Shown here piece after piece: positions 9,333 to 31,323 of a stretch of 58,446 bases of DNA (position 1 is its first letter; each line of letters opens with the position of its first letter). This DNA comes from Elusimicrobiota bacterium. Lineage in GTDB: Bacteria; Elusimicrobiota; Elusimicrobia; O2-12-FULL-59-9. A model generated the notes under the pieces. That model was not told where the DNA came from and ran no database searches. It saw only the letters and a program-made list of their open reading frames with translations. The DNA lies in assembly GCA_016206405.1 (NCBI GenBank), contig JACQRQ010000261.1:1-58446 (forward strand), given 5' to 3'. The position numbers were made by a program, and so were the translations under genes.

Positions 9333-12300
9333 TTACCCGTTTCTAGGCCCTTTGGGCCGGAACAAAGATGTCCAGCCGCCGGCGATTTCTTTCAAGCCGG
9401 CGAGGGTTTCTCCATCCCTGCCGTTGAATATTTTTCGCAGCCAATTCGGGAATTTTTCGCTGACGCTCTTGGCGGCCGCGGATTTCAGCGGATATACTTT
9501 GGGCGCGCCCCAATATAAAACCGCCATCGCCACAAGACCCGCTCCGATGACAGGCATCGCCACTGATTGAAAAGCGGCCGGGGTTCCCGACACCCCGGCC
9601 AGATAGCGCAAAAACCCATAACCGAACGAGAGGGCGATGGCGAAGAAAGCGCTTTGAACGGCGTCGATCCTGGCCCGGAATTCGTAATATTTCTTCGAGT
9701 AGGACTCTTCCCTGAAATAGGAAGTTAAAATGTGGCCTGCCGGGTTATTGAAAAGGCCGATAACCGCCAGGGCCACAAACAGCAGCGGAACGTATTGGAA
9801 CTTGAGGTAAAGGGCTCCCAGGGCGACTACGCTCAGCAGGCTGGCCGTGTTGCCCTGAACCCAGACCTTTTCAGAAACATACGGAGCGGCCGCAAAAATG
9901 CCCGCGGTCAGCCCGCTGCCCAGGGTCGCCGCCAAAGCCTTCCACAACGGCGCCACGGCCGCCCCCTGGGGAAAGAGGAAAAAATAAATCCAAGCCCAGA
10001 CTCCGGCCAGCATGGCCGACCTCAATATGCTGGTTCCAGGCAGCATGGGCGCCGTCAAATAAATCACGGCCGGTATCGCCCCCAAAGACCACCAGCCCAA
10101 CTGCGGCATCGTCAGCGCCAATAAACCGGTCACCAAGGCCGACAGTACGGCCTGCCTGGCAAAATGGTGAAACGGTTTCGCGTTCTCCGCGAGGGTTTGA
10201 GACTTATAAATTCCCGAAAAAGGCTTCCAAGAATCAGGAAGGTTCACCATCGCTATATTGCCCAACAATTGGCCCATAAACAGGGCGCCGATCAAAAGCC
10301 CCAGCACCAAGCCTTGACCCGTGCCGTGCGAAGCCGCCGCCATTCCCGGAAAAGATTCCGCCGCCTTGGCCAGGATAGGAAGAACAACGTTGCGCAACGG
10401 AAATATGACGACGGCGCCCATGGTCGTATAGACCATGGCCGTGCGCATGAAGGCGTTATTCCAGAGAAATTTAAACCCGGGGGAAAGCGGCACGATTACC
10501 AGAAACGCGAGGCTCGCCACCAAAGGCGATTGGAGCCAAATCGCCACCGCCGCCGCCGTGAGGGTGACTCCCGCGATGAGGATATAGCGCCAAACCGAAG
10601 AAGGCTTGCCCGAAGCCGAGGAGGCATCCGCCGGCGTCCCTTTATTGAACGCGCGAGAGAAAATCTCCTTGATTGTCCGCGCCGATCTCTGTATCCAACG
10701 CTTGGGCGTCGTAAAGAGCATCGAAACGGCCATCGAAACCAAAAGCTTCAGCAACTCGCGGCTCTTGGCGCCCGTCTTCTTAAGGCGCTCCGTGAAGGTG
10801 GCGGCCCGGCCGGTGAGGGCCGCCTGGTCCAGTTCGGCGCGGTCCGGCAGCGTCGCCAGGTAAATCAAAACAATAGGAATCTGGGCCACCGCGCCGAGCT
10901 TATAGATGGCGGAGGCCCCGTACGCATCCACCCACCCACCCCCCTTTAAGAAAATTCCGAAGAGAACCTGGATGCCGACAAAAAACAAAGCGAAGATCGC
11001 GTTGGTCGTCTTCTGCCGCTCATGAATGATTTTTCTGTGCGCCTTTTGCACCGCCGGGTCTTGGATTTTGGCCGAGGAGCTGCCTATCATGTCCCGCAGC
11101 ACGATGCGTTCGCCGTTCATGATGCTGTTTAAAATCCAACCATTGACCAAGGAAAGGCCCAGAAGCACCATAAAAGGCCACTCAAGGAAATTCCTATCGT
11201 AGAAAAACGCGAAAGCCGCGTTGGCGGCCAAGCGAACCAGCGTGGAAAGCGACATGCCGTACACGGGCGCATTCTCATCAAAAAGCTTGCCCGTCCAATT
11301 CGTCAAGGAAATTGAAAGAAGCGATCCTAAAGACATCAGCAGCGCCAAGCCCGGCCCCCCCGCTTTGTCCATCGCGACGACATAAAAAGCGATGCCGGTC
11401 ACCGTGAATACCCCCACGGAAAGTATCTTGGCGACCGCATTGCCGACGAGCCCGACCATATCCAGCGGGGGCCCGGGCGGCTCCGGCGCCCGGCTAAGCG
11501 CGCTTTCGACAGGGACCGGAGAGACCCGCCAAAGGCTTTTAAAATGATTTTGGAACGCTGCCGTCCAAGACTCTCTTTTCTCACCGGAGGAAGCGGCAAG
11601 GCTTGGCGTTGACGCCTCCGGCCGGACCTCCGGCTTTTTCATGGCCGCGCTTTCGCTTTGGGCCTCCCGGTTTTTTTGCTCCCGTTCGAAATCCCCCTGC
11701 AATCGCTTCAGCCCGGAGCGCGAGCCTTTCAGCGCCGCTAAAGAGCCGATGAGCGAAAAAAGAGGAAAATGAGCCCCGAAAATAACCGGGTTCCAGGCGG
11801 ACGGGACGGAGAAGGGCAAATCAAACAACCGAACGCCCATCGTCTGGTGGATGAGACCGCTGAACGAAGGCCAGGCCTCCGCGAAGCCGGGAACCGAACC
11901 GATGCCCAAACCGAAAAAAAGCAGCGCCAATCCGCCGACGACCAGCGGCGTCGTGTCATACCCGACGACAGGATCAGGTTTGCCTTGCGCGATGGTGCGG
12001 GCGGCGCGCTGAATTATTTTGTAGGACAAATAGCCGTAAAGCGCCCCCGCGGGAAGGGTGACGGCTAAACTGGGCAAAGCCAACGAAAGGCCGGACACCA
12101 CCTCGGAAAGCGCGGACGCGATGGGCGCCGACAAGGATAGTCCGCCGGCGGCGCCTGCCGAGACCGCCGCCGGAGCGGCGACCGAAAGCATTCCCGCCAA
12201 AGACAAAGAACCCGCCCATTTTCCAAAATGACTCTTGGACTCCGGCGCAGCCGGAGGGGCGCGCGCCCCCAAAGGCCCCGCAACTACGCCGGACTCAACG

Positions 12301-12824
12301 GAGGCCGGCGGGTCTGAGATTAGGCGCTTTTCCCCAAGCATGACCTCTTCAATGCCCTGCCCGGCCGAATAGGCCCCGTCCGTTGATAGATTCGGCTCAG
12401 CGACCGCCTTCAAGTAGGGGGTCAATTCTCGGGTCCGAATTTGGGCCGCCTTAAGAGCGGTCGGCGGCGCGCCCTTTTGAACCGCCGCGGCGGGAAACCA
12501 GCGCGGGTTTGACGCGACCGAACGCGGTCCCCGCAAATGGATCGTGCCGCCGGTCTTCGTCCGGACGGCAAAAGCGCGATAGGGCCCGGCGGAAAGCGAA
12601 TCGTGTCGGCGGCCGGCCCCGGTCCGGCTCCTGCCCGCCACGGCTCCCAGCGCCTGATAGCAGGGGAGTCCCGGCGCGGTGACGATTAATGCCGCGCAGA
12701 GAACCGTCCCAATCAATTGCAGAGGCAACTTCTTATGCATGATACCTTTGAACAAAAAAAACCGCCCCGAACAAAAACCGGCCGAAAGGGCGGCTGCCGA
12801 AGCTTTCCTTAATGGAAGAGTCAT
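9333..12824 (-). CDS. Giant polytopic membrane protein (1163 aa as ORF), last gene of the giant-protein cluster
   Basis: The ATG at 12824 overlaps the upstream stop (ATGA). An alternative start at 12740 gives MHKKLPLQLIGTVLCAALIVTAPGLPCYQALGAVAGRSRTG, the shared leader. The rest is dominated by 20 or more hydrophobic segments. No enzyme motif recognised. Confidence 0.8.
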   Translation of the reverse strand: MTLPLRKASAAALSAGFCSGRFFLFKGIMHKKLPLQLIGTVLCAALIVTAPGLPCYQALGAVAGRSRTGAGRRHDSLSAGPYRAFAVRTKTGGTIHLRGPRSVASNPRWFPAAAVQKGAPPTALKAAQIRTRELTPYLKAVAEPNLSTDGAYSAGQGIEEVMLGEKRLISDPPASVESGVVAGPLGARAPPAAPESKSHFGKWAGSLSLAGMLSVAAPAAVSAGAAGGLSLSAPIASALSEVVSGLSLALPSLAVTLPAGALYGYLSYKIIQRAARTIAQGKPDPVVGYDTTPLVVGGLALLFFGLGIGSVPGFAEAWPSFSGLIHQTMGVRLFDLPFSVPSAWNPVIFGAHFPLFSLIGSLAALKGSRSGLKRLQGDFEREQKNREAQSESAAMKKPEVRPEASTPSLAASSGEKRESWTAAFQNHFKSLWRVSPVPVESALSRAPEPPGPPLDMVGLVGNAVAKILSVGVFTVTGIAFYVVAMDKAGGPGLALLMSLGSLLSISLTNWTGKLFDENAPVYGMSLSTLVRLAANAAFAFFYDRNFLEWPFMVLLGLSLVNGWILNSIMNGERIVLRDMIGSSSAKIQDPAVQKAHRKIIHERQKTTNAIFALFFVGIQVLFGIFLKGGGWVDAYGASAIYKLGAVAQIPIVLIYLATLPDRAELDQAALTGRAATFTERLKKTGAKSRELLKLLVSMAVSMLFTTPKRWIQRSARTIKEIFSRAFNKGTPADASSASGKPSSVWRYILIAGVTLTAAAVAIWLQSPLVASLAFLVIVPLSPGFKFLWNNAFMRTAMVYTTMGAVVIFPLRNVVLPILAKAAESFPGMAAASHGTGQGLVLGLLIGALFMGQLLGNIAMVNLPDSWKPFSGIYKSQTLAENAKPFHHFARQAVLSALVTGLLALTMPQLGWWSLGAIPAVIYLTAPMLPGTSILRSAMLAGVWAWIYFFLFPQGAAVAPLWKALAATLGSGLTAGIFAAAPYVSEKVWVQGNTASLLSVVALGALYLKFQYVPLLFVALAVIGLFNNPAGHILTSYFREESYSKKYYEFRARIDAVQSAFFAIALSFGYGFLRYLAGVSGTPAAFQSVAMPVIGAGLVAMAVLYWGAPKVYPLKSAAAKSVSEKFPNWLRKIFNGRDGETLAGLKEIAGGWTSLFRPKGPRNG

Positions 12825-15523
12825 TTGGACCTGCCGTGCCTTTCCTCCATCCTGGCCTGCCGCTTTTTCCGCGCCTCCATTTTCGCGCGCTCATCCTCCG
12901 TAGTCTTGATCATCACCGCGACTTCCCGCATGATTTTGCCCCGCGCCTTGTCCAGGGCGATGGCGCTGAACTCGGGCTCCACCCATTCGGAAGGGTAAAA
13001 AAACACGACGCGAACACCTCTAAGCTTCCGCTTCTCTCCGCCCGCCGACTTATAAGGCACAGGAAGCTCCGCCCATTTAGAGGCGTCCATAAACTTGCCG
13101 CTCTCCGTCACCGCGAACAAGCGGTAGATCAAAACCTGCTCGTCTTTTTCCAACTGCCAGGCGGGCCGGACGGAATTGGTCTTGAAGTCGGCGATGACTA
13201 AATCGGCCACCTCGCCCTTGGGGTCCCGCTTGACCAGCACCAGGTCAAAAGCGCCCCGGAACATATAGCGGGCCAGCACATCGCCGACTTTGCGGGAATT
13301 TTTCCCATACTTGCGCATGATGTAGCTGATGGGAATCTCCCGGCCGTATACCTCGTAGCCTTCTTGCGCCATAAACGCCGCGACCTGATCCACGATGCCG
13401 ATGGCTTCCTGGGCGCCGCCGAATTTATAATCTCCCAGGTTGTCGCCCCGCTCGGGCATGAGGATGGGGCCTTCTTCTTCCGCGAGTTCCTGCTCCCAGA
13501 CGGCGTAAAATTTGGCCGTGATTTCATCCGGGGTCGGACGGCGCCCCTGATGCTGGATTTGATCCAGGGCCCAATCCAAAGTATAGTGCGCCACATGGCC
13601 CTTGAACGTCTGCGCGGGGGTGCCTCCCCTCCGCCGGTAATAGAGTTTTTCTTCGATCCAGCGGTGTCTGTCATATTTATAGGACTTGATGGACGAAGCC
13701 GAAGTTCTGTAATCGTTGGGACGCTGTTCGGTCCACTCGCCTAAAATCGCCTGCATTTCCACGTCGAGCAGAGCATTGCCTTCGATGCCGGAGTCTTTTT
13801 CAAAATACTCCGCCGGCTTGACCGCGTCCGGCACCGCTTTTAAGAGTTCCGGATTTGGAGTCAGCCACACCGATTCCCTTTGGCTGGCGCGCGTTCCGAG
13901 TTGGTCGCCCATCGCCGCATAGATGCGGCCCACCGAATCAAGCGCCGTGGTCTTGCGGATTCTAAATTTGATTTTCCCTTGATCGTCCAACCGCACTTCA
14001 GGCGTAAAAGCGAGCTGCTCCGCCGCCAATTTTTCCTGAAAGCGACCTTTCCACACTTCGGCAGAGACGCCCTCCGGCAAATCGATTTCGAAGGCGCCGG
14101 CGCTCGAGTTCTCCCGCAGCCCCTCCTGTTGTTCGGGCGTCCAGCCTTGCTCCACCGCCAAGTCCAAGGTTATCCGCCGGAAGGCGCGAAAATCATCCGC
14201 GCTGAAGCCGTTGACGCTGACAGGCGAGGGACGGCCGTTTTTATAGATGGAAATAACGGAGCCTCCTTCGCTGATTGAGACGAAGTTGTAGGATAGAAAG
14301 GAGTTCCGCATGGACGGCTGCAAATTCTTCAGCAACACTTTATGAAGAAAATCGTCGTTTTCTCTAGAGCCGAACTCCCGTCCGTCCTGCAGCACCGCCA
14401 AGGTGATGCCGTTTTTCTTCAAATTGGTCATATAGTCGACGATCCTCGCGGAAGGCGGCTCCCGGATCAGCGCCGCGTCGAGAAAAACCACCTTGGGATG
14501 GTAGCGACTCTGTTCCCTCAACGGGTGCCCATCGGAAAGCACCGCGGGGACATCCGGCCGGGCGGCGGGTTCCCAATCCTTGTCTTTGGACCGGTCCTTT
14601 TCCTCTTTCTCCCGGCGGATAAGGTCCGTCGATTTCAGGCTGATCACCCGCACAAGACTCTTGAGATTGACCGGGTCCACGGACAAAAGCTTTCGCAATT
14701 CGGCCTTATTTTTCCATTCCCCATAGCGCTTTGCGTTGCGGATATCGATATGTCTTAAAATTCCCACCAGCTTTTCGCGCAGCCACCCCAGGCCTTTGCT
14801 CTGGATTTGACGTTCGCTAAAAAATTCCATTCCCCGAAGATCCGATTTGCTCAGCTTCTCGATGGGCACAGTTTTGGCGGCCGACACCTGGCTCACAAAG
14901 GCTCCGCCTTGCCCTTTGTCCCGGGTTTTACCCGTCGTCACCTCGACGCGGTTTCCCGCTTGATAGTCCCGCCAATAGGCGCGGCTGCTCTCAAACCACT
15001 TGCTCCCGGGTTCTCCTCGGATTCTTCGCACGACGACGAACTCCTTGGCGGGGTCCCCGTTAAATCGAAGCGGACGAAGCTGCTTTCCGTTTCCATATAC
15101 CGGAGGCCTCGCCGAAACGCCGCCCGCCTCCTGGCGGTCTAATCCCAAGGGCTGGTCGTAAACTTGCCGCAGCATCGCGTAGGCGAACTTGATATCGTCT
15201 TCCTTCCCCTCCCCGGCGTTCTGATTTTCCATGTCGGCGGCGAATTTCTTCAAAGCCGGCGTCGCCGACGGAGCATGGGGGGAAAGATCGGCCGCCGGAG
15301 CGCGGCTGCCCGTTTTGCCGGCCGTCATGGTCGAAAGCGGGTTGCCGGCCTCCTCCCGAATCACGGGCTTATTGAATCCGCGGGTCTTTTTAACCGGCCG
15401 GGCGGGCCGTTGGATGCGCCCCGAGGCAGGCCGGGAGGACCGTCCGCGGAAAGCCGCCGCCGCCTCCTGCAGGGGGGAGAGGGCCAAACCCAGAACCAGC
15501 AACAAACTCAGCGATTTTTTCAT
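12821..15523 (-). CDS. Giant exported protein (900 aa) with a degenerate HAD-like module and a C-terminal PD-(D/E)XK (RecB-type) nuclease-like motif set
   Basis: Leader MKKSLSLLLVLGLALSPLQEAAAAFRGRSSRP. HAD-like VVFLDAALI lacks the second Asp. The C-terminus has GAFDLVLV, LVIADFKTN and EQVLIYRLF, then a basic tail KMEARKKRQARMEERHGRSK. ATGA overlaps at both ends. Confidence 0.8.
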   Translation of the reverse strand: MKKSLSLLLVLGLALSPLQEAAAAFRGRSSRPASGRIQRPARPVKKTRGFNKPVIREEAGNPLSTMTAGKTGSRAPAADLSPHAPSATPALKKFAADMENQNAGEGKEDDIKFAYAMLRQVYDQPLGLDRQEAGGVSARPPVYGNGKQLRPLRFNGDPAKEFVVVRRIRGEPGSKWFESSRAYWRDYQAGNRVEVTTGKTRDKGQGGAFVSQVSAAKTVPIEKLSKSDLRGMEFFSERQIQSKGLGWLREKLVGILRHIDIRNAKRYGEWKNKAELRKLLSVDPVNLKSLVRVISLKSTDLIRREKEEKDRSKDKDWEPAARPDVPAVLSDGHPLREQSRYHPKVVFLDAALIREPPSARIVDYMTNLKKNGITLAVLQDGREFGSRENDDFLHKVLLKNLQPSMRNSFLSYNFVSISEGGSVISIYKNGRPSPVSVNGFSADDFRAFRRITLDLAVEQGWTPEQQEGLRENSSAGAFEIDLPEGVSAEVWKGRFQEKLAAEQLAFTPEVRLDDQGKIKFRIRKTTALDSVGRIYAAMGDQLGTRASQRESVWLTPNPELLKAVPDAVKPAEYFEKDSGIEGNALLDVEMQAILGEWTEQRPNDYRTSASSIKSYKYDRHRWIEEKLYYRRRGGTPAQTFKGHVAHYTLDWALDQIQHQGRRPTPDEITAKFYAVWEQELAEEEGPILMPERGDNLGDYKFGGAQEAIGIVDQVAAFMAQEGYEVYGREIPISYIMRKYGKNSRKVGDVLARYMFRGAFDLVLVKRDPKGEVADLVIADFKTNSVRPAWQLEKDEQVLIYRLFAVTESGKFMDASKWAELPVPYKSAGGEKRKLRGVRVVFFYPSEWVEPEFSAIALDKARGKIMREVAVMIKTTEDERAKMEARKKRQARMEERHGRSK

Positions 15524-18264: not shown

Positions 18265-18363
18265 AGTGGCTTTCCTAAATTGAAGTTTGCCGGCCCTCTC
18301 TCCATTCAATCTCATTCTAACCCGATTATCCGGCCCCCGCATGGGCCATTGGTCCCAGCAGGG

Positions 18364-18396: not shown

Positions 18397-18435
18397 AAGA
18401 CCTGCAAAAACTTGCCGGATTTTTCCGCTAGCAAT

Positions 18436-21702: not shown

Positions 21703-21703
21703 T

Positions 21704-24700
21704 TCAAGTGAGAAAATGCGTGATATAAAACAACACCGTCGACCATCCCACGAAACCCAACACGCCGGCCATCAGGGACTTTTTCAAAGCGCCCGCTTTA
21801 TACATCTGCCAGAAAATCGCCGCCTGCAAGGTGATCCCGCCGATGGTGCAGGCCAAGGTGTTGATCCAGAACCACGGATTGGTCTTCGCCACCAAAAGCA
21901 AAGTGGGCAATAAAAAGGCGTTGGCCAGCAAGGGCAGCGCGACATAAAACCAATCCATGCCGGCCAGCAAGTGCGCGTTGCCGCTCTTTATATTTTGGTG
22001 ATTGGTCCAAAGCTGCTTGGCGGGAAAAGATAAAAATATCACATTGGCGGCAAAATTGAGAGGGCCGGTGACGGGCTGATAATGCGCGGCGACGATGGGC
22101 GGAAGGAAAATCCATGAACTCAGCATGGTCACCGCGGCCAACGCCCATTTGATCTTGGTGTAATTGTCCATGTCCTTGAGTTGATTAATCTTGGACTGAA
22201 GCCATTTCACCTTGTGGGACAGAGGCGAGAGCGTGCGCTTAAGCGCGTGGACTCGGGTTTCGCCTGGAGCCAATTCCATCTCGAAATCCGTTTTTTCTCC
22301 GGGAAGCCGAAAGCGCACAGGGGCCGGTTGGTCGGAGGGATTGGTCAGTACGGCGAGAGCCACATCTTGCATGATGGCTTCATTTTTTGGCCAGAGAAGA
22401 TACCCCGCCCAGGCTTCATCCCCCTGGCCTTGAATTCGCTCCGGCTGCGAAAAATTATTCAATAAGCGCCTCTTAAGTCTCTTTCCAACGGCATCGCCTT
22501 TTCTGCCATCGACGGGCTTGAATATTTCCTCAACCCTTTCAACGAGCGCGGCGTCGCCGGCCGGAGTCAACCAATGCGCGGCCGGAAACAACCGCGCCAT
22601 CCAATGGATCCCCGCGACCGGCGCCGGAAGGGCCAAAATTTCCCCGATGCCTCCTTTTTGCCAATGCTGAAAGACCTGCCAATCGATGGCCCGGCCCGCC
22701 TCGCCGGCTTTGCCGCTTTCCAAACGGGTTTGCCATCCGATTTGAGAATAATATGGAAGCCCGCCGGAGTCCTCCAGCGCGATGTCGCCCTGATTGATGA
22801 CGGCGTCGAAACCGGCGGCCGCCAGCGACCCGCGGTGAACATTGCCCTGGGCTAGAAAGGCGATCCCGGGATATTCCATTTTAAGCTCGGATATCAATTC
22901 CTCCCAAAACTCCCGGGCCGGCATTTGAACTCCGTGGTTTCTGGCAAATTCGCCGTTGAGCAGAAGCTCCGGATTTTCTATGCGGAACCCATCGATGCCG
23001 AATTTGGAAATCCAATGCCGCACGGTTTCCAGAGCCCACCGCCGAGTCTGAAGGCTGGAATAATCCAGTTGCGCCGCGTTGGGATGATGGCGAAGCCGCT
23101 CCCCTTCTCTCATGGCGCTCAGCCGGACCAACAGCGGCCCCTGTTCGGGATGCAGGATGGGGGCCCACCCTTCCGGAGGCCGGCGCAATTCCTCCGCGGT
23201 AGCCTTCCGGTGGATGATCATGCCGATGCTTTCAGTCAGGAAAGCGGAATCCAAAGAGACGTGATGCAAAGGCAAATCCATGATCACGCGCAGAGGTTTT
23301 TCCACCCTGGCGGAAGCTTGGCGGACCCTGCGGGTGAATGCCGCCAAATCCTGCGAAGCGCCCAGCGCCGGATTGACCAAGCCAAAATCAATGGGCGCAA
23401 AAGGAGCGCTGACATCCCTGAGCATTGCCGAACCGATGGAAAACGTATTGACGTCCTGTTGGTCCGCCAATGCCGCTATTTCCTCCGGCGACCAAGCGCC
23501 CAGCGGCTTCGCGGTCTTGGGCAGTTCATAGACCTGCATTTCTCGCGCCCACGCGGATAGATTGTTCTTCATGTGGCTTTGCTGCAGCTCAGGAACCTTC
23601 TTTTCCAGAAAAGCCGTAAGCTGCCGCCGGAGATCGTGAGGATTCTTTTTAATGTCCAGAAGGGATTTGAGTTCGGACCGGACAAGACCCGCCCATGATG
23701 AAAAAGAGCTCAAAGGCTGGAGCAATTCCTCGATCATGTAGGCGAAGAGCTGCGGCATTTGGCCGGACAGGGCGCGGTCGATATCCTCCGACTCTGCTCT
23801 CTTTCGCGCGGCCTCAAGGCCTTCGTGCCGACTCTCCAATTCATCGGCCTCTTGATTGAGGCGCCGGATATCGCGGTCCAACTGCGTCAAGGCGTAGAGA
23901 ATGCCCTCCAGACCGGCGGAGGGCGCAAACCGGCTGCCGCGGCCCAAATTAAACGCGAACGGCGCGAGCCTGGAATGGTCCGGCAACAGAGGCCCAACGC
24001 TGAGAATCTGTCGCTCCTCCAAAGACAGCCGCCATGTGTCCAGATTTTTTTGCCGGATTTGAATCTGCTGTTGACCGGCGTCGCGGCCGGCGGCGCTCTC
24101 CGATGAGCTTAACAAGGCCGCGGCGAAGGAAGGAATTAGCCCGCGGCGGTTGGCCCGCTGCACCCAGCCGGAAATCCAGCTCAACTGCCGCTTCGCCTTG
24201 AAATTCGCCCATTTTTGATCGGAGCGCTGATTCTCCAGCGATAGAAGGCGCAGATAAAGCCTCAAGCTTTCCTGAATGACCGCCGGCTTATTCTGCAGCA
24301 TCGCCTTCAGGTTTTCGAGCAGGGATTCGGGATCTTTCGCGTCGTCGGCGGCGAAAATGTTCTCAAGCCATATCAGAAGCCCCGGATATTTTTTGATCTC
24401 CTCCACGTTGAAACGGCTGAAAAACGCCTCCAAATAGGGAGCCGGCAGAGCCAGAATCATCCGGCTGGACATGCGCTGGCGCTGCAAAAACTCCAGCAAC
24501 GGGCTCTCGGAGCTGAACGGCGCGGCGGAACCGAAATCCAAACTCACGGTCGCCGCCAATTCGGGTAAATTATTTTTTTGCCTGTCGGCGTTGACTCCAT
24601 CCAGTTTTTTAAGCGCCCAAGCCAGCCTTTCCAAGGCGACCGCCTCCGTCCCCCCTTTTTTTCCCAAAACTTCCTCGTTCCAAACCGAAGAATCACTGGA

Positions 24701-27700
24701 CCCGGTCGGGTCCTTTTTGGACCCCAAGCGGATGAGTACCGCGCCGGCAGGAGGCTCCACAACCTCGGTTTCATCTTGAATCGGAAACACCAGCCCGGGG
24801 ACTCGCGCCAAAAAGCCGCTTTTTTCCAAGACCTCATTTAAGGCCGTCATTTTATTTTCGGGAATCGAAAGCGTAATATAACCGGGTAGAACGGCGCGCA
24901 CCGCGCCGCCCAGTTTGCGCACCTCTTTGAGTGGAAAATCAACCCTCTCCATGGCCCATGCGGCCTGTCCCTCGGATGCGGCGGTCTTGTCGGGACCGTA
25001 CAACAATATGGCATCGGAGAGAATGGATTTCTTGCCCGGAGGCGCCTCCACGATGAGATGCAAGCCGCTGATCTCGGAGTCGGCGCCGGCGATGCCGGCT
25101 GGATCGGGCGAAAGCCGGAGAGGCACTTTTTGGATATTGGCGAAAATCTGCGCCAAAAGACCAAGTTCATCATTGGGATATTTTCCCAATTCCTTGTATT
25201 TTTCCACGAAATCCAGCATCGCCTTGCGAATGGCGGCGGAACTCCTCAACCGCGGGATCACCGCCTGGGGACGCAGCCGGACCAACTGCACGTAAAACCG
25301 GATAACCTGCGCCGCGATCCGCCGGCCGACCGGATCGTCGCTGGCGGCCTGAACGGCGTGCACGAACGCTTCGTCGGGCAAAGAATCGGCATCCGCCAAG
25401 CCCTTCTCGCGCAGGGCATCGAGAGCCAGTTCGCGGATATTGACCCTTTCCATCGGATCGGAAACGATGGAAGCCAGAAAAAGGGTGATTGGATCTCCCC
25501 AAGAAATTTTCTCATCCACGGTCTCGCGCAGAGCCCACAGCACGCTCCACCGGGTGAATTTGGATTTCGAGGGGTTGTATTCCTTTAGAAATTCCAGCAG
25601 GACCGGCAGGGACTCCTCCGTGTGGCCGCGCCGCGCCAATCCCGCCGCGGCGTAAAGCCGCGCCTGCCCGGAAGATTCCTTAAAAATCTTCTGCAGCGCG
25701 TCGGTGGATTCCGGGGATTCAATTTTCCACAAAGCCTGAAGCGCGTGCTGCCGCAAACGCTCGTCTTGGGCGGCGCCGGCCTGCGTCAAAGCGGGGACGG
25801 CCGCCGCGGTCCGGAACTCGCCCAAAGCGAAGACCGCGGCGGCGCGGTTAAGCCAGGGCTCGTTCTGGTCGAGAACCGTTTCAATAAATGCGGGCAGAAC
25901 CTTCTTGACCTCCGCCTCAAAAGCCGCCCTCCAAACCTTTTCCAGCTCCCTGGCTCTTTCCGGCGTCAACTCCAGAACGCCGGTCTTGGCCAAAAGCCAG
26001 CCATACTCCTCGTTATCGAGAACGGGCCTGCCGAATGCTCCTTTTGAAAAGCTCATGATTTTCGGCGCGGCATCGAGAATAATGGCTTTGAGCGGCGGCG
26101 GCGTCTTCTCCCAGGAAGGGTGAGAGCGGACTTGCTCCAAAACCTTTTCCACGGCTTTTGCCCGCGCGCCGTCGAAAGGCGCATTGGAAAGCGCCTCCAT
26201 ATCACGGTAGCGGCGTATCGCCTGATAGCCTTTAGGCTCGCTGAAGATTTTCGTGGCCAATTGCGCCGCATGATAGGCGTGCGCCTGGCCGGCGCCCATC
26301 CCCTGATGCGGAAGCCCCATACTTATGGCCGTCGCCATCAAAATGTATTTTATCGACTGGTGAGCGTTTTCAGAGAAGAACTTCCTGGCCTCACCATAAT
26401 CTTTGCCGCGAGCCCAAAGCAGCGTATAAATGACGGTCTGATAAATGGCGCCGCCTATCCCGGCGATCATCGGAGAAGCCATAGATGTTCCGGACATCCA
26501 AACGTAGCGCGCCCCCTTGACCACGACGTCGCACAAGTCTTTCACGCGGCTTGATCCGCCGGCGGCCAAAACCCCCTCAAATTCTCCTTTCAAGTAGAAG
26601 AAGCACTCCTTGAGCCACGATCGCACGCCTCGAATAGTGCCGCCGACCGCGGTGATGTCCGGTTTGGAGACGTATTTACCCCGGACCGGGTCCCATACGT
26701 CTCCCTGGCTGCTGAAACCCGACAACTCTCCGAGATGGTCTTTTTCTCCCTTGGTCAGGCTCGCGACCGCCATGACGGCCGGGTTGGCGGCCGGAGAACC
26801 GACGGTCTGTCTTTGGGGACCGCTGTTTCCGGCGGCGACGGATACGAAAACGCCGGCTTTTTCAATCACCCTGCCCAAAAATTTGGCGAGTTCCGAACCA
26901 GGATGTCCCTCGCTGCCCAGGCTCAAATTGACGACCTGCAGCCCCTTCTGGAGCAGGGCCACCACGCCGCTTTGAATGACGCTCATTCTCGCGCCGCTTT
27001 CGTCATCGGCGAAGACCTTGGCCATGGTGGCTTTTGCGCGGGGCAAAAATCCCTGAATCCATCGCTTTCGGAACAGGCTCACCGCCTTGCCGCCGATGAT
27101 GGATATCACATGCGACCCATGCAGCTGCGGATCATCGGACTTCTGGTTGACCAGGTTTACCTCTTCGACGTGCGAAATCATGGGGTGCGACGGATTGCGG
27201 CCGGTATCCACCGCGCCGGCGCTAATTTGCGTCCGGGAAAGGCGCGGCAGGACGTAGACTAAGGACGCGAAGAACTGCCGCAGGCGCCGGAGCAAGGACA
27301 AAGGCTTGCCGTCCGGGCCGCGCATTTGCGAAACGATTTTCCAGCCCGCTTTGAGAGCCGCCGCGTATGAAATCTCCCCCCCGTCGATCCCTGTTTCCCG
27401 GAGCGGGTTGAAATGGTGCAGTTGCGGACTGATGTGCATGAGCGAGCTTACGCGGTACTGGAACAAGGTGGAAGGAATTCCTCTCTCCCGGAACCGGTCC
27501 TGCATTTGAGCCGCGACAACCTCCGGAACGCTCAAAAAAGCGTGGTTGCCGTATTTTTCCTCAATCACCGTGATGATCTCAGCCCCTTTGTCGAGGAGCT
27601 CTTCCAAAAAGGGCGAGCGGCCGGAAGCCGTGTCCGGAACCACGGTTCCACCCTCGATGCCGGCCCGGATCAACTCGCTTTTTGCCTCGACCGCCTCCTC

Positions 27701-29722
27701 CTCGTTGAAACGCGGCCAAAGAATCGATTTCTGGATCGGCGCCGGCAGCTTTATTTTTATTTCCACGTGAGGTTCCTGTTTTTGAAGGAGCAAAAAGGGA
27801 GCCTCCACGCCCGCCCGGACGGCCTGAATTTTGAATAGACCCGCTTGCGGGCTGCGCCAGGACTCAAAAAGCCGAGTTAAAAACTGCACGTCCGTTCCTT
27901 CCGGCAAATCGATGGCCGCGATTCCCCCCAGCTTCAAGCTGCCGTAGAGGGCATCCAGCCATTCAAACGCCATCTCCCCTGTGAGCCGGTATCTCGCCTC
28001 CGCCGCCTGCCATATTTGGGTGATTTGCGCGCGCTCCAGACGCTCCATGTCAAGCGGGTTTTTGGAGTCCACCGTCTCTGCTGGAATGTCGGGAACGCCT
28101 CTCAACTGCGCCAGGCGCCGGGCGGCCTTGCCTTGGAAATAGCGCTCCACCTCCACAATGGCGGAGGCGGCCTGGGATTTAATCTCCGGGGACATCAGGT
28201 TTTCGAGAATCCGGACGGAGTTTTTTATCCGCAGCATCCTGAAACGGCGGCGGTTTTCCTTCGATTTCAGGGCGGATAGGATGTCCCCCGCAGGCAAAAC
28301 GGAAGATTCAAACCGCGCCTGGTGGCCCGAAAGGAAGTCGATGCCCGTTTGCTCTTCGCTCATCTTGGCCGCCGGGCTGAGGTTGTCCGGCGCCGCATCT
28401 TGCCCCTGCGCGTCTTCCATATAATATAGGCCCACGCGGTACGGAAAATTGGAGGCCAGAGTCGCCGACCATCGATCCAGAGCCGTTTCCAACGCATTGG
28501 AGAAAGCCTGAGGCGCCACCGGCGTGGGCTTGCGCCACAGATTCGAGGCCCACCGGTATAGATACGCCTCCACCGGCCAGAAGGCTTCCCACAAGGCGTC
28601 CATCGCATCCCGGAGACTTCCGCGCGGCTCGGGCATTCCCCGGTTGAGATGGTTCAAGTAGACCGTGCCGAATTCGAGCGCGCGCCTTAACTCGCCCGGA
28701 GACAAAGTGACGATCGGATCAATGAAAAATTTCCTCTGCTCCCGGTCGTAATAAAAAGGCTTCCAAAACCGGCGGTATTCATCCGGAATAAGCTGCAGCG
28801 GCCCGGAAAGCTCTTGCCCGGCGACGACGCCGTCATTTTCCGTTCCCAGCCATGTAGGGTCGATGACGCCCTCAGCGGCCAAACGACGGATGTTCTCCCG
28901 CGCTTGATACGGCAGAAGCTCGCCCCTTTTTTTCCAGCGGTAAATTTTCAGGCCCAATTTCCAGGCCAAAACGGTCCCGAAGCCCAACAGGCCGGCCTCA
29001 ACGGCGATTTGAGGCATCGCGAAAGCCCCCGTCGCCCCGAATGCGGCCGAAGGCGAAGCCATAGCTCGCGCGGCGCTCACGGCTACCAGGCCGGCGGCCA
29101 GCATCGCCGATTTAAGAGGCGAAGGAATGCGGCTTGGAGCGCTTTCCGGCTTGGCCGGCGGGGCGGGAGAAGGAGCGATCTCAAAATCCAGATTGGAAGG
29201 CGCGGAGGGCCTGAAATGCGGCCGGATTCCGGCGGAGGTCGCATCCGGAGCCATGACGGCGGCGCCTTTCAAATCGGTCGATGGCGAAATTCCATCAAAA
29301 GCGGCGGCTTCTATCCAGTAATCTTCGGAGGAAAGGTCGCCCTCAATTCGACCGCCTTTCCCGGCGGAGAAATTTTCCGGGACGGATACGGCGCCGCCCG
29401 CGGACGGTTTCGCCAAAAATCCGTGGACTCCGGGCAAAACGGAGAAAATTTCCTTCACCCGGCGCCAAACGGCCGGGCGCTCCGCCGGCTTCATGCGCGT
29501 CTGAAAATTCTTGACGTCCGCAAGTCCAGACACCCGCGCCGGCGAGTTTCTGCGAAGACCGGCCCTGGGCGCGGCGGGCGATGTCCGCATCCGGACGCCG
29601 CGCTGAGACCGGGCGCGGACCGCGGCCATAGCCTCATAGCAGCCCGGGCCCGGCGCCGCCACGATCAGAGCCGAAGCCAGCAGCGCGGCGGTTATTTTCT
29701 TTAAAAATCTCATGTCGGCCAT
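21704..29722 (-). CDS. Giant multidomain protein (ORF 2684 aa): shared leader, S8 subtilase, HEAT repeats, GH13-like module, C-terminal multi-TM anchor
   Basis: ORF 21704..29758. The likely start is at 29722 (MADMRFLKK, GAGAGGG upstream) or 29713. Leader ...ALIVAAPGPGCYEAMAAVRARSQRG. Domain evidence is given in the three sub-features below. The C-terminal ~150 aa hold about 5 hydrophobic helices. Confidence 0.85.
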   Translation of the reverse strand: MADMRFLKKITAALLASALIVAAPGPGCYEAMAAVRARSQRGVRMRTSPAAPRAGLRRNSPARVSGLADVKNFQTRMKPAERPAVWRRVKEIFSVLPGVHGFLAKPSAGGAVSVPENFSAGKGGRIEGDLSSEDYWIEAAAFDGISPSTDLKGAAVMAPDATSAGIRPHFRPSAPSNLDFEIAPSPAPPAKPESAPSRIPSPLKSAMLAAGLVAVSAARAMASPSAAFGATGAFAMPQIAVEAGLLGFGTVLAWKLGLKIYRWKKRGELLPYQARENIRRLAAEGVIDPTWLGTENDGVVAGQELSGPLQLIPDEYRRFWKPFYYDREQRKFFIDPIVTLSPGELRRALEFGTVYLNHLNRGMPEPRGSLRDAMDALWEAFWPVEAYLYRWASNLWRKPTPVAPQAFSNALETALDRWSATLASNFPYRVGLYYMEDAQGQDAAPDNLSPAAKMSEEQTGIDFLSGHQARFESSVLPAGDILSALKSKENRRRFRMLRIKNSVRILENLMSPEIKSQAASAIVEVERYFQGKAARRLAQLRGVPDIPAETVDSKNPLDMERLERAQITQIWQAAEARYRLTGEMAFEWLDALYGSLKLGGIAAIDLPEGTDVQFLTRLFESWRSPQAGLFKIQAVRAGVEAPFLLLQKQEPHVEIKIKLPAPIQKSILWPRFNEEEAVEAKSELIRAGIEGGTVVPDTASGRSPFLEELLDKGAEIITVIEEKYGNHAFLSVPEVVAAQMQDRFRERGIPSTLFQYRVSSLMHISPQLHHFNPLRETGIDGGEISYAAALKAGWKIVSQMRGPDGKPLSLLRRLRQFFASLVYVLPRLSRTQISAGAVDTGRNPSHPMISHVEEVNLVNQKSDDPQLHGSHVISIIGGKAVSLFRKRWIQGFLPRAKATMAKVFADDESGARMSVIQSGVVALLQKGLQVVNLSLGSEGHPGSELAKFLGRVIEKAGVFVSVAAGNSGPQRQTVGSPAANPAVMAVASLTKGEKDHLGELSGFSSQGDVWDPVRGKYVSKPDITAVGGTIRGVRSWLKECFFYLKGEFEGVLAAGGSSRVKDLCDVVVKGARYVWMSGTSMASPMIAGIGGAIYQTVIYTLLWARGKDYGEARKFFSENAHQSIKYILMATAISMGLPHQGMGAGQAHAYHAAQLATKIFSEPKGYQAIRRYRDMEALSNAPFDGARAKAVEKVLEQVRSHPSWEKTPPPLKAIILDAAPKIMSFSKGAFGRPVLDNEEYGWLLAKTGVLELTPERARELEKVWRAAFEAEVKKVLPAFIETVLDQNEPWLNRAAAVFALGEFRTAAAVPALTQAGAAQDERLRQHALQALWKIESPESTDALQKIFKESSGQARLYAAAGLARRGHTEESLPVLLEFLKEYNPSKSKFTRWSVLWALRETVDEKISWGDPITLFLASIVSDPMERVNIRELALDALREKGLADADSLPDEAFVHAVQAASDDPVGRRIAAQVIRFYVQLVRLRPQAVIPRLRSSAAIRKAMLDFVEKYKELGKYPNDELGLLAQIFANIQKVPLRLSPDPAGIAGADSEISGLHLIVEAPPGKKSILSDAILLYGPDKTAASEGQAAWAMERVDFPLKEVRKLGGAVRAVLPGYITLSIPENKMTALNEVLEKSGFLARVPGLVFPIQDETEVVEPPAGAVLIRLGSKKDPTGSSDSSVWNEEVLGKKGGTEAVALERLAWALKKLDGVNADRQKNNLPELAATVSLDFGSAAPFSSESPLLEFLQRQRMSSRMILALPAPYLEAFFSRFNVEEIKKYPGLLIWLENIFAADDAKDPESLLENLKAMLQNKPAVIQESLRLYLRLLSLENQRSDQKWANFKAKRQLSWISGWVQRANRRGLIPSFAAALLSSSESAAGRDAGQQQIQIRQKNLDTWRLSLEERQILSVGPLLPDHSRLAPFAFNLGRGSRFAPSAGLEGILYALTQLDRDIRRLNQEADELESRHEGLEAARKRAESEDIDRALSGQMPQLFAYMIEELLQPLSSFSSWAGLVRSELKSLLDIKKNPHDLRRQLTAFLEKKVPELQQSHMKNNLSAWAREMQVYELPKTAKPLGAWSPEEIAALADQQDVNTFSIGSAMLRDVSAPFAPIDFGLVNPALGASQDLAAFTRRVRQASARVEKPLRVIMDLPLHHVSLDSAFLTESIGMIIHRKATAEELRRPPEGWAPILHPEQGPLLVRLSAMREGERLRHHPNAAQLDYSSLQTRRWALETVRHWISKFGIDGFRIENPELLLNGEFARNHGVQMPAREFWEELISELKMEYPGIAFLAQGNVHRGSLAAAGFDAVINQGDIALEDSGGLPYYSQIGWQTRLESGKAGEAGRAIDWQVFQHWQKGGIGEILALPAPVAGIHWMARLFPAAHWLTPAGDAALVERVEEIFKPVDGRKGDAVGKRLKRRLLNNFSQPERIQGQGDEAWAGYLLWPKNEAIMQDVALAVLTNPSDQPAPVRFRLPGEKTDFEMELAPGETRVHALKRTLSPLSHKVKWLQSKINQLKDMDNYTKIKWALAAVTMLSSWIFLPPIVAAHYQPVTGPLNFAANVIFLSFPAKQLWTNHQNIKSGNAHLLAGMDWFYVALPLLANAFLLPTLLLVAKTNPWFWINTLACTIGGITLQAAIFWQMYKAGALKKSLMAGVLGFVGWSTVLFYITHFLT
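22240..23400 (-). other. GH13 (alpha-amylase family)-like module with substituted catalytic positions, inside the 2684-aa protein
   Basis: Region I-like PIDFGLVNPALGASQDLAAFTRRV...LRVIMDLPLHHVS. Region II-like WISKFGIDGFRIENPE has Glu where the nucleophile Asp is expected. Region III-like GIAFLAQGNV has no Glu. The C-terminal beta-sandwich-like stretch is VALAVLTNPSDQPAPVRFRLPG...ELAPGETRVHAL. Confidence 0.55.
25290..25900 (-). other. HEAT/PBS-lyase-type helical repeat region, inside the 2684-aa protein
   Basis: Repeated pattern of roughly 30 aa: NRAAAVFALGEFRTAAAVPALTQA..DERLRQHALQALWKIESPESTDALQKIF..ARLYAAAGLARRGHTEESLPVLLEFL... Confidence 0.6.
26350..27260 (-). other. Subtilisin-like (peptidase S8) domain with a complete catalytic triad, inside the 2684-aa protein
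   Basis: ISAGAVDTG (Asp codon 27206-27208), LHGSHVISIIGG (His codon 27119-27121), oxyanion VAAGNSG, and WMSGTSMASPMIAG (Ser codon 26483-26485), in the canonical D-H-N-S order. Confidence 0.8.
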
Positions 29723-29773
29723 ACTGGCTGCCCTCTCAACGCCGACTGCTTCTCTCATCGACCGTCCGGACGG

Positions 29774-30886
29774 CTACTGAATGACGAACAAGCCGGAAGG
29801 CTCGGCTTCCGGCGCCTGTTGCGCTATTTTCAATTTCTTGGCGCCGCCCTGGCGGCCCAGATTCAGGGGCATCGCGAGACCAAAATGAAAGGCCGAGTTT
29901 TTGCCCGCCCAACGGCCCGAAGCTACGGTCTCGCCGGTCACATACAAATTCCAAGCCCCCCACTGGTAACCCGCGCCGAGCACGGCGCGCACTTGGCCGG
30001 CGTTGACGGCGGCGGTGTGCTCTCCGATGGTCGGAAAAAGCAGCTCGCTTTGAAATTCGTTGGTGATGCGCGCCCGCACCGTCGCTTGACTATAGCTGTA
30101 CCCCACGCCGCCGAAAGGCATCCAAGCCCCGAAGGAATCGCTTAACAAGGCGTTGACGCCGAGGCTTTTGATCTTCCACGCCAGCTCTCCGCTGTTGACG
30201 CTGTCGAGGTCGAAGCCTTCTTGGATTTCGTCGCTGGATTTGCTGTTGAATACAAGCGCTCCAGCCATGTAATTGGCTGATCCCGTGACGCTGCAAAGCG
30301 GAAATCTGCCGCCAAAAAAATGCCTGCGCGCTTCAAAACCGAGCGCGGCCGTATGCAGCTTGGCCTCCGTGTCGGGACTGGGTTTTTGCTTGGGGGTGGA
30401 AAGAAAACTGAGCTTGACGGCGGCGTCGAAACGCGATGGAAGGCCCACTCGCATTTGAGCGTTTAAATCCGGGAAAGGCAGGCTGGATTGAAAGCCGCCC
30501 TTGATGTCTTTTTCCCTCAAGGTTTGCAGCCGGAATTCGGGAAACTGGCCGGTATCCAGAGGCACGTTGCCGAGCCCCAGATTAAAAGCCGCCATCAACT
30601 GCAGCGGACGCAATTCGACGGGAGGCGCCAAAACGGAGGCTGAATTGAACGCCAACCCGGAAACCGCCTCCTCGCTGAACCACTTGGAAATGCGGGCGAA
30701 TTCGCTTTCAAGGGTGACTCCCTGGGCGCAGGAAAGAGACGTCCGCAAAAGCGAAAAAGCGAGGAGCGCCAAAAACGATGTCCACCGTTTCTTTGCCGGT
30801 CCCGCCGTTAAAGTACCTATCTGCATAAATTCGCCGATATACGGAGAGGCTTCAATCCTGCGACGCAAAACATCCACAAAATCCAA
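29774..30886 (-). CDS. Putative outer-membrane beta-barrel protein, first gene of the giant-protein cluster
   Basis: 370-aa ORF starting at TTG 30886 (GAGGAA 6 nt upstream), or at ATG 30826. Signal-like KKRWTSFLALLAFSLLRTSLSCAQG. After that come many short amphipathic strands (AAVKLSFLS, TAALGFEARRHFF, WMPFGGVGYSYSQATVRARI, RAVLGAGYQWGAWNLYVTGE, AFHFGLAMPL). The stop is 15 nt before the 2684-aa ORF. Confidence 0.55.
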   Translation of the reverse strand: MDFVDVLRRRIEASPYIGEFMQIGTLTAGPAKKRWTSFLALLAFSLLRTSLSCAQGVTLESEFARISKWFSEEAVSGLAFNSASVLAPPVELRPLQLMAAFNLGLGNVPLDTGQFPEFRLQTLREKDIKGGFQSSLPFPDLNAQMRVGLPSRFDAAVKLSFLSTPKQKPSPDTEAKLHTAALGFEARRHFFGGRFPLCSVTGSANYMAGALVFNSKSSDEIQEGFDLDSVNSGELAWKIKSLGVNALLSDSFGAWMPFGGVGYSYSQATVRARITNEFQSELLFPTIGEHTAAVNAGQVRAVLGAGYQWGAWNLYVTGETVASGRWAGKNSAFHFGLAMPLNLGRQGGAKKLKIAQQAPEAEPSGLFVIQ

Positions 30887-31283: not shown

Positions 31284-31287
31284 CAGC

Positions 31288-31317: not shown

Positions 31318-31323
31318 GGCATT

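Follow-up and report, generated by a model that had tools for sequence, protein, structure and literature searches.

A leader-bearing gene cluster of Elusimicrobiota built around a predicted RecB-type nuclease and its apparently inactivated paralogue

A contig of an Elusimicrobiota bacterium (JACQRQ010000261.1, assembly GCA_016206405.1) was analysed over positions 1 to 58,446 of its forward strand; this whole stretch of 58,446 nucleotides is hereafter referred to as the window. Positions 9333-30886 are occupied by six large minus-strand genes, numbered g1 to g6 in the order of transcription. The core of this cluster is a pair of adjacent genes, g5, the product of which is predicted to be an active nuclease of the RecB/Cas4 type, and g4, which appears to encode a catalytically dead paralogue of it. 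Grouped around the pair are lineage-variable genes of transporters and hydrolases with a shared N-terminal leader. We are confident of the descriptive part of this account, i.e., that the genes are real and form a phylum-restricted, inherited module with an invariant live/dead nuclease core and variable leader-tagged partners. The coordinates and lengths of the six consecutive open reading frames (ORFs), given in a preliminary description of the window made from its sequence, were all reproduced:

g1, 29774-30886, minus strand: ORF of 370 residues, likely true start at ATG 30826
g2, 21704-29758, minus strand: ORF of 2,684 residues, likely true start at 29713
g3, 18436-21702, minus strand: ORF of 1,088 residues
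g4, 15520-18366, minus strand: ORF of 948 residues, likely true start at 18264
g5, 12821-15523, minus strand: ORF of 900 residues
g6, 9333-12824, minus strand: ORF of 1,163 residues, likely true start at 12740

The cluster spans 21.5 kb and takes up 36.9% of the window, in agreement with the earlier figure of about 37%. Alignment of the leaders suggests that the internal ATG codons at 30826, 29713, 18264 and 12740 are the true starts of g1, g2, g4 and g6, respectively, and this affects one of the gene junctions described before. The distances of 15 nt between g1 and g2 and of 1 nt between g2 and g3 stand, as does the ATGA overlap of g4 and g5. The second ATGA overlap, of g5 and g6, is probably a gap of ~80 nt, because alignment of the leaders puts the start of g6 at 12740; a gap of this size resembles the 70-160 nt gaps of related clusters.

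The g4-g5 pair and its conservation

The g5 product begins with a hydrophobic N-terminus, followed by a disordered Arg-rich stretch (from residue ~21-25 to residue 146), a small alpha/beta N-domain (residues 150-330), a HAD-fold domain (residues 340-570, positions 13814-14506), a PD-(D/E)XK domain of the RecB/Cas4 type (residues 600-850, positions 12974-13726) and a charged C-terminal helix. Exhaustive HMMER search of 1.84 billion representative sequences revealed 36 clusters of g5 homologues, which are 24-35% identical and, when full-length, mostly 750-1,070 residues long. Word-index protein searches with g3, g2 and the g5 family profile yielded self-matches or nothing, against the 36 clusters found by exhaustive HMMER; for low-complexity or transmembrane-rich proteins, absence of homologues in a word-index search is not the same as orphan status. 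Pfam family PF12705 was matched by 27 of 37 members of the g5 family, g5 itself being under the Pfam reporting threshold. The family contains the complete motif set SAS, GHxxH, GTExPN, FDFV, DFKTG and QVxxY, and residues E729, D760, D779, K781, Q796 and Y800 are conserved at 90% or more in the family alignment.

An AlphaFold2 (AF2) model of g5 built with the family alignment had a mean predicted local distance difference test score (pLDDT) of 79.6 and a predicted TM-score (pTM) of 0.72, with pLDDT above 90 over most of residues 600-850. Foldseek searches of BFVD with the nuclease domain returned RecB-family and other PD-(D/E)XK proteins with E values of 7e-10 to 1e-5 and target-normalised TM-scores of 0.42-0.57. 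The HAD-fold domain was matched to HAD phosphatases with a IIB cap (ISN1, a PMM-like enzyme and T6PP) with E values down to 6e-8. A weak match of the model to an ASCH protein in BFVD (E 0.14) is considered as a lead only. Sequence and profile searches of the PDB with g5, the g5 family and the g5 N-domain revealed nothing meaningful.

The g4 product is organised similarly, with a hydrophobic N-terminus, an Arg-rich linker, a HAD-like domain, a PD-(D/E)XK domain that appears to be inactivated and a long Lys/Glu-rich C-terminal coiled coil. Searches with iterated profiles connected the families of g4 and g5 with E values of 1e-41 to 1e-56, and by this measure the two proteins are predicted to be paralogues of common layout. 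In the g4 family the SAS, GHxxH, GTE, D and DxK motifs are all replaced; judged by these motifs, g5 is the predicted active and g4 the predicted catalytically dead member of the pair. A g4-like gene was found directly upstream of the g5-like gene in every one of the 21 loci that have enough upstream sequence (19 of them non-redundant), with an overlap of 4 nt or a spacer of no more than 10 nt between the two genes. In two loci one member of the pair is interrupted: in L002 (744-2984) two abutting ORFs take the place of the g4-like gene, and in L018 (332-2883) two overlapping ones that of the g5-like gene. Sequencing errors or frameshifts in metagenome contigs of low coverage, or pseudogene formation, could account for these splits.

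Both the motif set (SAS, GHxxH, GTE, D, DxK(T/S)G, QxxxY) and the fold of the g5 family are those of RecB/AddB/Cas4 nucleases (PF12705). Unlike these nucleases, g5 combines the nuclease domain with a novel N-domain and a HAD-fold domain, has a hydrophobic leader and a disordered linker of ~120 residues, and occurs in Elusimicrobiota only. The association of an active with an altered subunit resembles the logic of AddAB, a heterodimeric end-processing nuclease. In contrast to AddAB and RecBCD, the g4/g5 pair lacks Fe-S cysteines and helicase/ATPase domains: the model contains the N-, HAD and nuclease domains only, and no match to helicase or P-loop families was found in g4 or g5 in Pfam and NCBIfam scans.

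To describe the distribution of the module, 31 related loci were used (within the series L002 to L033; L0xx denotes related loci), which came from homologue look-ups and from a metagenome scan in which 16 sequences of the family were used. L001 was kept apart from this set. All organism-labelled members of the g5 family come from Elusimicrobia or Elusimicrobiota, and no match to the family was found in plasmid and phage collections. In the window, L025, L031, L032 and L033 the cluster is followed downstream by genes of a receiver, thioredoxin, PolA and rhomboid, the series continuing to CoaE and Rho in the window and L033. PolA and rhomboid genes are also located downstream in L011 and L019, while in L031 SMC, metallophosphoesterase and DUF6588 genes are located upstream. 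Since the cluster keeps one chromosomal slot in many genomes, the module appears to be vertically inherited and, by the labels of its homologues, phylum-restricted. In L023, L026, L027, L029 and L030 the pair is found at other sites, with large partner genes still adjoining it. The GC content of the cluster is the same as that of its flanks; for this reason, and in view of the absence of plasmid or phage matches and the conserved chromosomal position, a mobile-element origin was rejected.

The proposal that the six genes belong together is borne out in part. In ~20 independent Elusimicrobiota loci, transporters and hydrolases with the leader are repeatedly encoded beside the g4-g5 pair, which is itself invariant, while wide conservation is limited to g4, g5 and the MFS (major facilitator superfamily) partner. 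The same applies to the order of the genes: a g4-g5(-MFS) core is found elsewhere, g1 belongs to one sub-lineage, and g2 has no full-length relative.

The earlier concern that the giant ORFs might be chimeric or broken could be addressed with a second assembly. A genome scan with g3 recovered as its single relative L001 (MGUX01000060.1, 'Elusimicrobia bacterium RIFCSPLOWO2_12_FULL_59_9'), an independent assembly of the same species that is 97.4% identical to the window at the nucleotide level over 16078-26863. The ORFs are uninterrupted in L001 over this interval, i.e., g3 and the covered portions of g2 and g4 stay open. In g3 and the covered parts of g2 and g4, the counts of synonymous versus non-synonymous codon differences from L001 are 66/46, 47/35 and 33/18. 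Because the frames are open in L001 and synonymous differences outnumber non-synonymous ones, the genes are, as far as codon comparison can tell, real, under purifying selection and not assembly chimeras, at least over 16078-26863.

The shared leader and the genes that carry it

The N-termini of g2, g3 and g6 consist of K/R residues, 13-16 hydrophobic residues and then the motif [AS]PG[LP]x[CP]Y[QE]A[LM][AG]A. Across lineages, the cluster-wide form of this leader is a hydrophobic stretch followed by [AS]PG[LF]xxY[QE]A. In pairwise BLAST comparisons the leaders of g2, g3 and g6 match each other with E values of 5e-5 to 5e-4. Their positions, as defined by BLAST and a regular expression of the motif, are:

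g2 leader, 29621-29713, minus strand: MRFLKKITAALLASALIVAAPGPGCYEAMAA
g3 leader, 21610-21702, minus strand
g6 leader, 12642-12740, minus strand

When the motif expression was run against a six-frame translation of the 58-kb window, the leaders of g2, g3 and g6 were the only matches. In the related loci (~20 kb each) the matches were confined to cluster genes on the cluster strand, namely those of ABC, MFS, M48, S8 and ATP-grasp-membrane proteins; the motif is also present in L026, L031, L032 and L033. The leader is thus specific to cluster proteins. Five products had been described as sharing it: the strong motif is a property of g2, g3 and g6, while g4 and g5 have a generic hydrophobic N-terminus and an Arg-rich tract only. 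Two other interpretations of the leader were rejected. It is not a lipobox, since the Cys is not universal and the residues at -1 and -3 do not fit, and it has neither the GFxxxE motif of a prepilin nor the twin-arginine motif of a Tat signal.

All five window proteins g2-g6 are strongly basic behind the leader or hydrophobic N-terminus: the 60 residues after the hydrophobic stretch contain 9-16 K/R and 0-5 D/E, and g4 and g5 have 13 K/R there, starting at position +2. This feature was not found in other secreted proteins of the window. In most relatives, N-termini of both classes are followed by an AxA-Q site and 100-250 nearly uncharged residues of Ala/Pro/Ser-rich low complexity; in the window, L032 and L033 the tract is Arg-rich instead. 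The composition of the linker is switched between lineages, Arg-rich in some and Ala/Pro/Ser-rich in others, while its position and length are kept.

Two of the window proteins appear to be MFS-type membrane proteins. In g3 the leader and a basic linker are followed by a HAD phosphatase domain (residues ~195-472, positions 20287-21120) with a canonical DxDxT motif I (DFDKT) and by a divergent MFS-like membrane domain (residues ~589-1088). Its HAD region matches the tandem HAD (Hydrolase_3) domains of a 1,470-residue HAD-HAD-MFS protein of L023, and its transmembrane (TM) region matches MFS_1-positive proteins of L016 and L025. Exact-sequence look-up of g3 returned no record. In g6 a leader, a basic linker and about four extra TM segments precede a divergent MFS core (residues ~454-1126, positions 9447-11465). 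Homologues of g6 are located downstream of g5-like genes in L009, L010, L014, L016, L017, L020, L021, L023 and L030, and a g6-type MFS gene follows the g5-like gene in at least 10 loci. Four of the seven g6 family members match MFS_1 (E 1e-8) and the DHA3 H+ antiporter model TIGR00900 (E 2e-8); g3 and g6 themselves are below Pfam thresholds and match neither model. Sequence and profile search of the PDB with the g6 family revealed nothing meaningful.

In the largest product, g2, a leader, an Arg-rich tract and about two TM segments precede a long soluble stretch, and 3-4 further TM segments follow at the C-terminus; the protein is predicted to be anchored at both ends. It had been counted among three huge polytopic membrane proteins, which does not hold for g2, as only ~3 N-terminal and 3-4 C-terminal hydrophobic segments surround ~2,270 soluble residues. 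The following domains were recognised in it:

S8 subtilase domain, 26327-27217, minus strand: residues 848-1144, PF00082 E 6e-29
HEAT repeats, 25499-25900, minus strand: residues ~1287-1420, HEAT_2 E 2e-14, AlphaRep matches in the PDB
GH13-like region, 22829-23416, minus strand: residues ~2115-2310, TIGR02456 E 2e-4, PADLOC GlgB model E 7e-4

The S8 domain matches subtilisins of the PDB with E values down to 7e-16 and has an intact Asp-His-Ser triad (DTG-851, HGSH-886 and GTSMA-1092). All 24 weak PDB matches of the GH13-like region are to GH13 members, with conserved regions I-III aligned. In this region Glu (GFRIE) stands in the place of the nucleophile Asp and Gln (LAQGN) in that of the acid/base Glu, scores are far under the family cut-offs, and the region is probably non-catalytic, as its residues suggest. 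All motif islands noted beforehand, i.e., S8, HEAT and GH13-like in g2 and HAD and PD-(D/E)XK in g5, were thus recovered by profile or structure searches, the GH13-like one only weakly. Library scans, including those with g2 tiles, left ~1,900 residues of g2 without family assignment, and no full-length homologue was found in homologue searches or in the related loci. At L033 1-1507, a few kb upstream of g4/g5, lie the C-terminal 501 residues of a 2,535-residue protein that has no Pfam match and contains a motif similar to GH13 region I (FDEIPNH). By this motif it may be a distant counterpart of the giant g2; BLAST at E 1e-3 revealed no link between the two proteins.

The g1 product has an ordinary signal peptide and matches Pfam DUF6588 with an E value of 1e-6 (28.5 bits against a cut-off of 27). 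The beta-barrel assignment comes from this DUF6588 membership, just above the cut-off, and a single-sequence AF2 model had a pLDDT of 30; the protein is a putative outer-membrane protein on this account. Homologues of g1 (E 1e-47) hold the same position in L011, L012, L019 and L031. Profile search of the PDB with the g1 family yielded nothing, and nothing relevant to DUF6588 was found in the literature.

In the related loci the following partners were found next to the pair:

Full-length and half-size ABC exporters together with a DUF6588 gene: L011, L012, L019, L031
Half-size ABC exporter: L033
M48 peptidases, fused to MFS domains where checked: L016, L017, L031, L032
S8 peptidases of ~820 residues: L025, L032
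M28 peptidases: L026, L030, L032
Double-PLD protein: L027
ATP-grasp proteins of the L-amino-acid-ligase type: L003, L009, L014/L020, L026, L029
PrcB_C proteins: L025, L026

The partner ABC proteins (ABC_membrane plus ABC_tran) occupy the same positions as the MFS partners.

Topology and possible function of the module

One of the most interesting features of the locus is a conflict between the leader and the predicted location of the domains behind it. In a 1,063-residue ORF of L009 (2189-5380), two ATP-grasp domains follow the leader and an Ala/Pro linker, and the leader holds the sole hydrophobic segment. GC content at third codon positions (GC3) of this ORF is 0.8-0.9 through the leader region, and since it stays high there, the leader/ATP-grasp fusion should be coding. 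ATP-grasp enzymes depend on ATP, which is available in the cytoplasm and not outside the cell; for an enzyme of this kind a secretion-type N-terminus is a paradox. In the full-length ABC exporters of L011 and L031, the leader is followed by a linker of ~190-270 residues without a credible TM segment, a strongly basic segment before the first TM segment (TM1) and the canonical 6+6 TM segments. Because the pre-TM1 segment of type IV ABC exporters is cytoplasmic and no TM segment lies between it and the linker, the linker of these exporters must be cytoplasmic as well. The Arg-rich tracts after the hydrophobic region (h-region) of the leader argue in the same direction, since by their predicted charge they fit the positive-inside rule for a cytoplasmic segment and would hinder Sec export. 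Finally, the cytoplasm is the usual location of RecB-type nuclease domains, HEAT repeats and ATP-grasp domains. The preliminary description had taken some of the products for soluble exported proteins; this is doubtful, given that the same leader and linker front an ABC exporter without extra TM segments and a double ATP-grasp protein. Its suggestion of an envelope-spanning or polymer-capture apparatus is likewise doubtful in view of the cytoplasmic-domain relatives and of transporters that are like exporters (DHA3, ABC_membrane) and not importers.

The explanation we favour, tentatively and as something short of an even chance, is a complex of the inner membrane, assembled by way of the leaders, in which a phosphodiester polymer is cut next to export pumps. 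In such a complex g4 and g5 would form a heterodimer with a single active nuclease site, which we infer because of the conserved 0-10 nt spacing of the genes, the dead/live pattern and the charged C-terminal helices. The leader would serve as a tether to the membrane or a tag for assembly, and not simply for secretion. It would gather nuclease, phosphatase, protease and pumps at the inner membrane, and the catalytic domains would most likely be on the cytoplasmic face. For the heterodimer and for the tethering role of the leader the chances appear to be evenly balanced. The substrate that the complex might then cleave, and perhaps dephosphorylate, at the membrane would be a polymer with phosphodiester links, most likely nucleic acid or nucleoprotein; nucleic acid is the most plausible polymer because of the RecB-type active site. 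The attached H+-antiport or ABC pumps would expel the products, g2 would contribute protease activity and scaffold domains (HEAT, pseudo-GH13), and g1, with its DUF6588 domain, would be the outer-membrane partner in the sub-lineage that has it. Such a cut-and-expel function is speculative and, in our estimate, unlikely. That the leader and the disordered linker constitute a new sorting and assembly signal, which recruits unrelated enzymes and pumps around a heterodimeric RecB-type nuclease into a phylum-specific supercomplex, is rather doubtful.

A number of observations weigh against the favoured explanation. The leaders resemble classical Sec signal peptides: the n-region is basic, the h-region, at 13-16 residues, is short for one that anchors a protein in the membrane, and a Pro-Gly breaker and an AxA-Q site are present. 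An N-in/C-out orientation is predicted for most relatives, in which the residues behind the h-region are neutral or acidic, and the half-size ABC relatives seemingly contain ~3 extra TM segments before the canonical domain, so that their linker would be periplasmic. Recurrent neighbours are of typically exported kinds (M28, M13, PLD, PrcB_C, SLT and DUF6588). HAD motif I is degenerate in g5 (LDAAL) and in g4 and one subfamily (LDMRLF), and canonical in one g5 subfamily (LDLD/LDVD). The only ties of g2 to the cluster are its adjacency and the shared leader. The TM counts are hydropathy-based and crude and do not fix the parity of the MFS proteins. The signal-peptide-like leaders, the exported kinds of neighbours and the apparently odd number of extra TM segments in half-ABC relatives would all be accounted for by an extracytoplasmic digest-and-import apparatus, in which the leaders are true Sec signals, g4/g5 is a periplasmic or surface nuclease, g2 is an exported protease and glycan binder, g1 is the outer-membrane pore, the HAD domains remove phosphate from the products outside the cytoplasm and the fused MFS proteins serve for their uptake. 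The Ala/Pro-rich linkers of relatives, which are typical of envelope proteins, and the presence of nucleotidases among the top HAD-fold matches would fit it too. We nevertheless regard such an apparatus as unlikely: a canonical ABC exporter requires its pre-TM1 segment to be in the cytoplasm, an ATP-grasp protein without any other TM segment lies behind the same leader, Arg-rich tracts after the h-region should block Sec export, the transporters resemble exporter and not importer families, and the RecB-type nuclease, HEAT and ATP-grasp domains are of typically cytoplasmic kinds. On balance, the sequences make us lean slightly towards cytoplasmic, membrane-tethered domains over exported ones.

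It is also conceivable, though quite unlikely, that the genes do not encode one machine, and that a self-contained g4-g5 nuclease is accompanied by independent large membrane proteins accumulating at a permissive site, with the leader acting in generic targeting, e.g., as a signal for the signal recognition particle (SRP). The great variation of neighbours between genomes (MFS, ABC, M48, S8, M28, PLD, ATP-grasp), the terminator-like hairpin between g3 and g4 and the lack of a g2 homologue elsewhere are consistent with this. However, in the 58-kb window and the ~20-kb loci the leader is found in cluster genes only and not in the other membrane or secreted proteins encoded there, leader-bearing genes adjoin g4/g5 even when the pair is at another site (L023, L026), and the junctions of 15 nt and 1 nt are tight. 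Genes of ATP-grasp proteins of the L-amino-acid-ligase type beside the pair in at least 6 loci, exporter-type pumps and recurrent peptidases would suit a biosynthesis-and-export or envelope-polymer locus, in which ATP-grasp, HAD and peptidase enzymes make or mature a peptide-, nucleotide- or phosphodiester-containing product that DHA3-type MFS and ABC proteins export. This is very unlikely, as no ATP-grasp or other recognisable biosynthetic enzyme was found in the window by Pfam and NCBIfam scans, a nuclease-type pair constitutes the only invariant genes, and biosynthetic clusters would rarely be expected to be fixed at one housekeeping site across a phylum. Least probable of all is a defence function, in which a membrane-tethered nuclease and a protease destroy phage or plasmid material at entry. 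The S8 domain is weakly similar to defence-associated subtilases (IetS/IteS), the HEAT region is similar to the HEAT-ARM models of PADLOC, the nuclease is predicted to be membrane-anchored, and accessory genes vary around a constant core as in defence islands. Yet no PADLOC model matches g1 or g3-g6, the family is not found in plasmid or phage collections, and occurrence in a single phylum at a conserved housekeeping position points to vertical inheritance, unlike the patchy distribution of defence genes.

The statement that the cluster matches no described system was upheld: none was found in Pfam, NCBIfam, PADLOC, PDB sequences or the literature on DUF6588 or on Elusimicrobia combined with component terms. 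Scans of Pfam, NCBIfam and PADLOC, relaxed E values included, returned nothing for g3-g6, and PADLOC-DB v2 gave only generic subtilase, HEAT and GlgB-type matches, all of them to g2. Database annotation of the proteins is limited to 'hypothetical' or 'PD-(D/E)XK nuclease family protein'. The module is new at the system level, every recognisable domain in it being of a known kind; beyond g4, g5 and the MFS partner, its unity is given by adjacency and the shared leader.

Comparison with known systems revealed partial likenesses. HAD IIB phosphatases (Cof/Hydrolase_3, trehalose-6-phosphate phosphatase and the IMP nucleotidase ISN1) have their fold in common with g5 residues 340-570, and the DxDxT motif of g3 is canonical; in the cluster, unlike in these enzymes, HAD domains are set in apparently membrane-associated proteins of 800-1,500 residues or in MFS fusions, and motif I is degenerate in g5 and g4. 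The g6 family and the ABC proteins of relatives match models of DHA3/EntS-type MFS and type IV ABC exporters, from which they differ by a ~30-residue leader and an extension of 150-900 residues, sometimes including a HAD domain, ahead of the core, and by the absence of a periplasmic adaptor or TolC partner. The S8 domain of g2 weakly matches the NCBIfam model of PrtP (E 0.004, 15.8 bits against a cut-off of 300), a component of Treponema denticola dentilisin (PrtP-PrcA-PrcB). In contrast to dentilisin, no PrcB or PrcA and no lipoprotein signals are found among the six proteins of the window, g4/g5 have no dentilisin counterpart, and PrcB_C genes occur in L025 and L026 only. Polysaccharide utilization loci (PULs) of Bacteroidota, tripartite efflux systems and type I secretion systems likewise co-localise an outer-membrane protein, hydrolases and inner-membrane transporters. 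Unlike them, the cluster lacks SusC/SusD, TonB-dependent receptors, membrane-fusion proteins and the TolC family in Pfam and NCBIfam scans, its transporters are exporter-like, and the nuclease pair is unprecedented there.

Elusimicrobiota are widespread and almost entirely uncultivated. A module that takes up 21.5 kb in the window and one fixed chromosomal position in many genomes is probably important to their biology. The g4/g5 pair represents a new architecture of RecB-type nucleases, in which an active subunit, fused to a HAD domain and predicted to be membrane-associated, is paired with a dead one; the substrate of g5 could reveal a new process involving nucleic acid or a phosphodiester polymer at the bacterial membrane. 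If the leader is indeed an assembly or sorting tag common to polytopic pumps and soluble enzymes, it would represent a new principle of organisation of membrane complexes and would provide a sequence handle for finding all clients of the system. For topology predictors, too, the locus provides a concrete test case, with a leader that looks like a signal peptide and yet precedes domains that must be cytoplasmic.

Flanking regions and neighbouring genes

The description of the flanks as housekeeping was confirmed, with genes of Rho, a CoaE-like protein, rhomboid-DUF6576, PolA, thioredoxin and a stand-alone receiver on one side of the cluster and those of an M23 peptidase, a SurA-like protein, PfkB and SMC on the other. 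No tRNA or Rfam elements were found in a scan of the window. Between g3 and g4 there is one further feature:

Terminator-like hairpin with a T-run, 18373-18396, minus strand: consensus match only

The hairpin, reported as a terminator, does match the consensus at 18396-18373, but such matches are no commoner here than in shuffled sequence. Its position coincides with the boundary between the lineage-variable genes g1-g3 and the conserved core g4-g6. A promoter scan of 8600-21800 showed that sigma-70-like sites are no commoner in this interval than in shuffled sequence. The region upstream of g1 (30887-31686) contains a non-coding stretch of ~340 nt, a minus-strand ORF of 113 residues (31225-31566) without a family match and then the divergent gene of the M23 peptidase, and is the likely promoter region of the cluster.

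The conserved block downstream of the cluster is located at 2767-9191 in the window, 18907-22565 in L025, 20625-22472 in L031, 18575-22490 in L032 and 15660-22745 in L033. The stand-alone receiver encoded in it is highly conserved (…IFI(V/I)EDD.HFRETF.DVMALRG…), and in L033 a second receiver gene is present just upstream of g4. A functional tie of the receiver or the rhomboid to the module is conceivable; as an intramembrane protease, the rhomboid might have the leaders, with their Pro-Gly, as substrates. PrcB_C genes are found at the upstream edge in L025 (4178-7196) and L026 (364-921), and L025 also contains there two near-duplicate genes of ~370 codons, one of which matches SLT lytic transglycosylase; a dedicated lytic transglycosylase would fit an envelope-crossing assembly.

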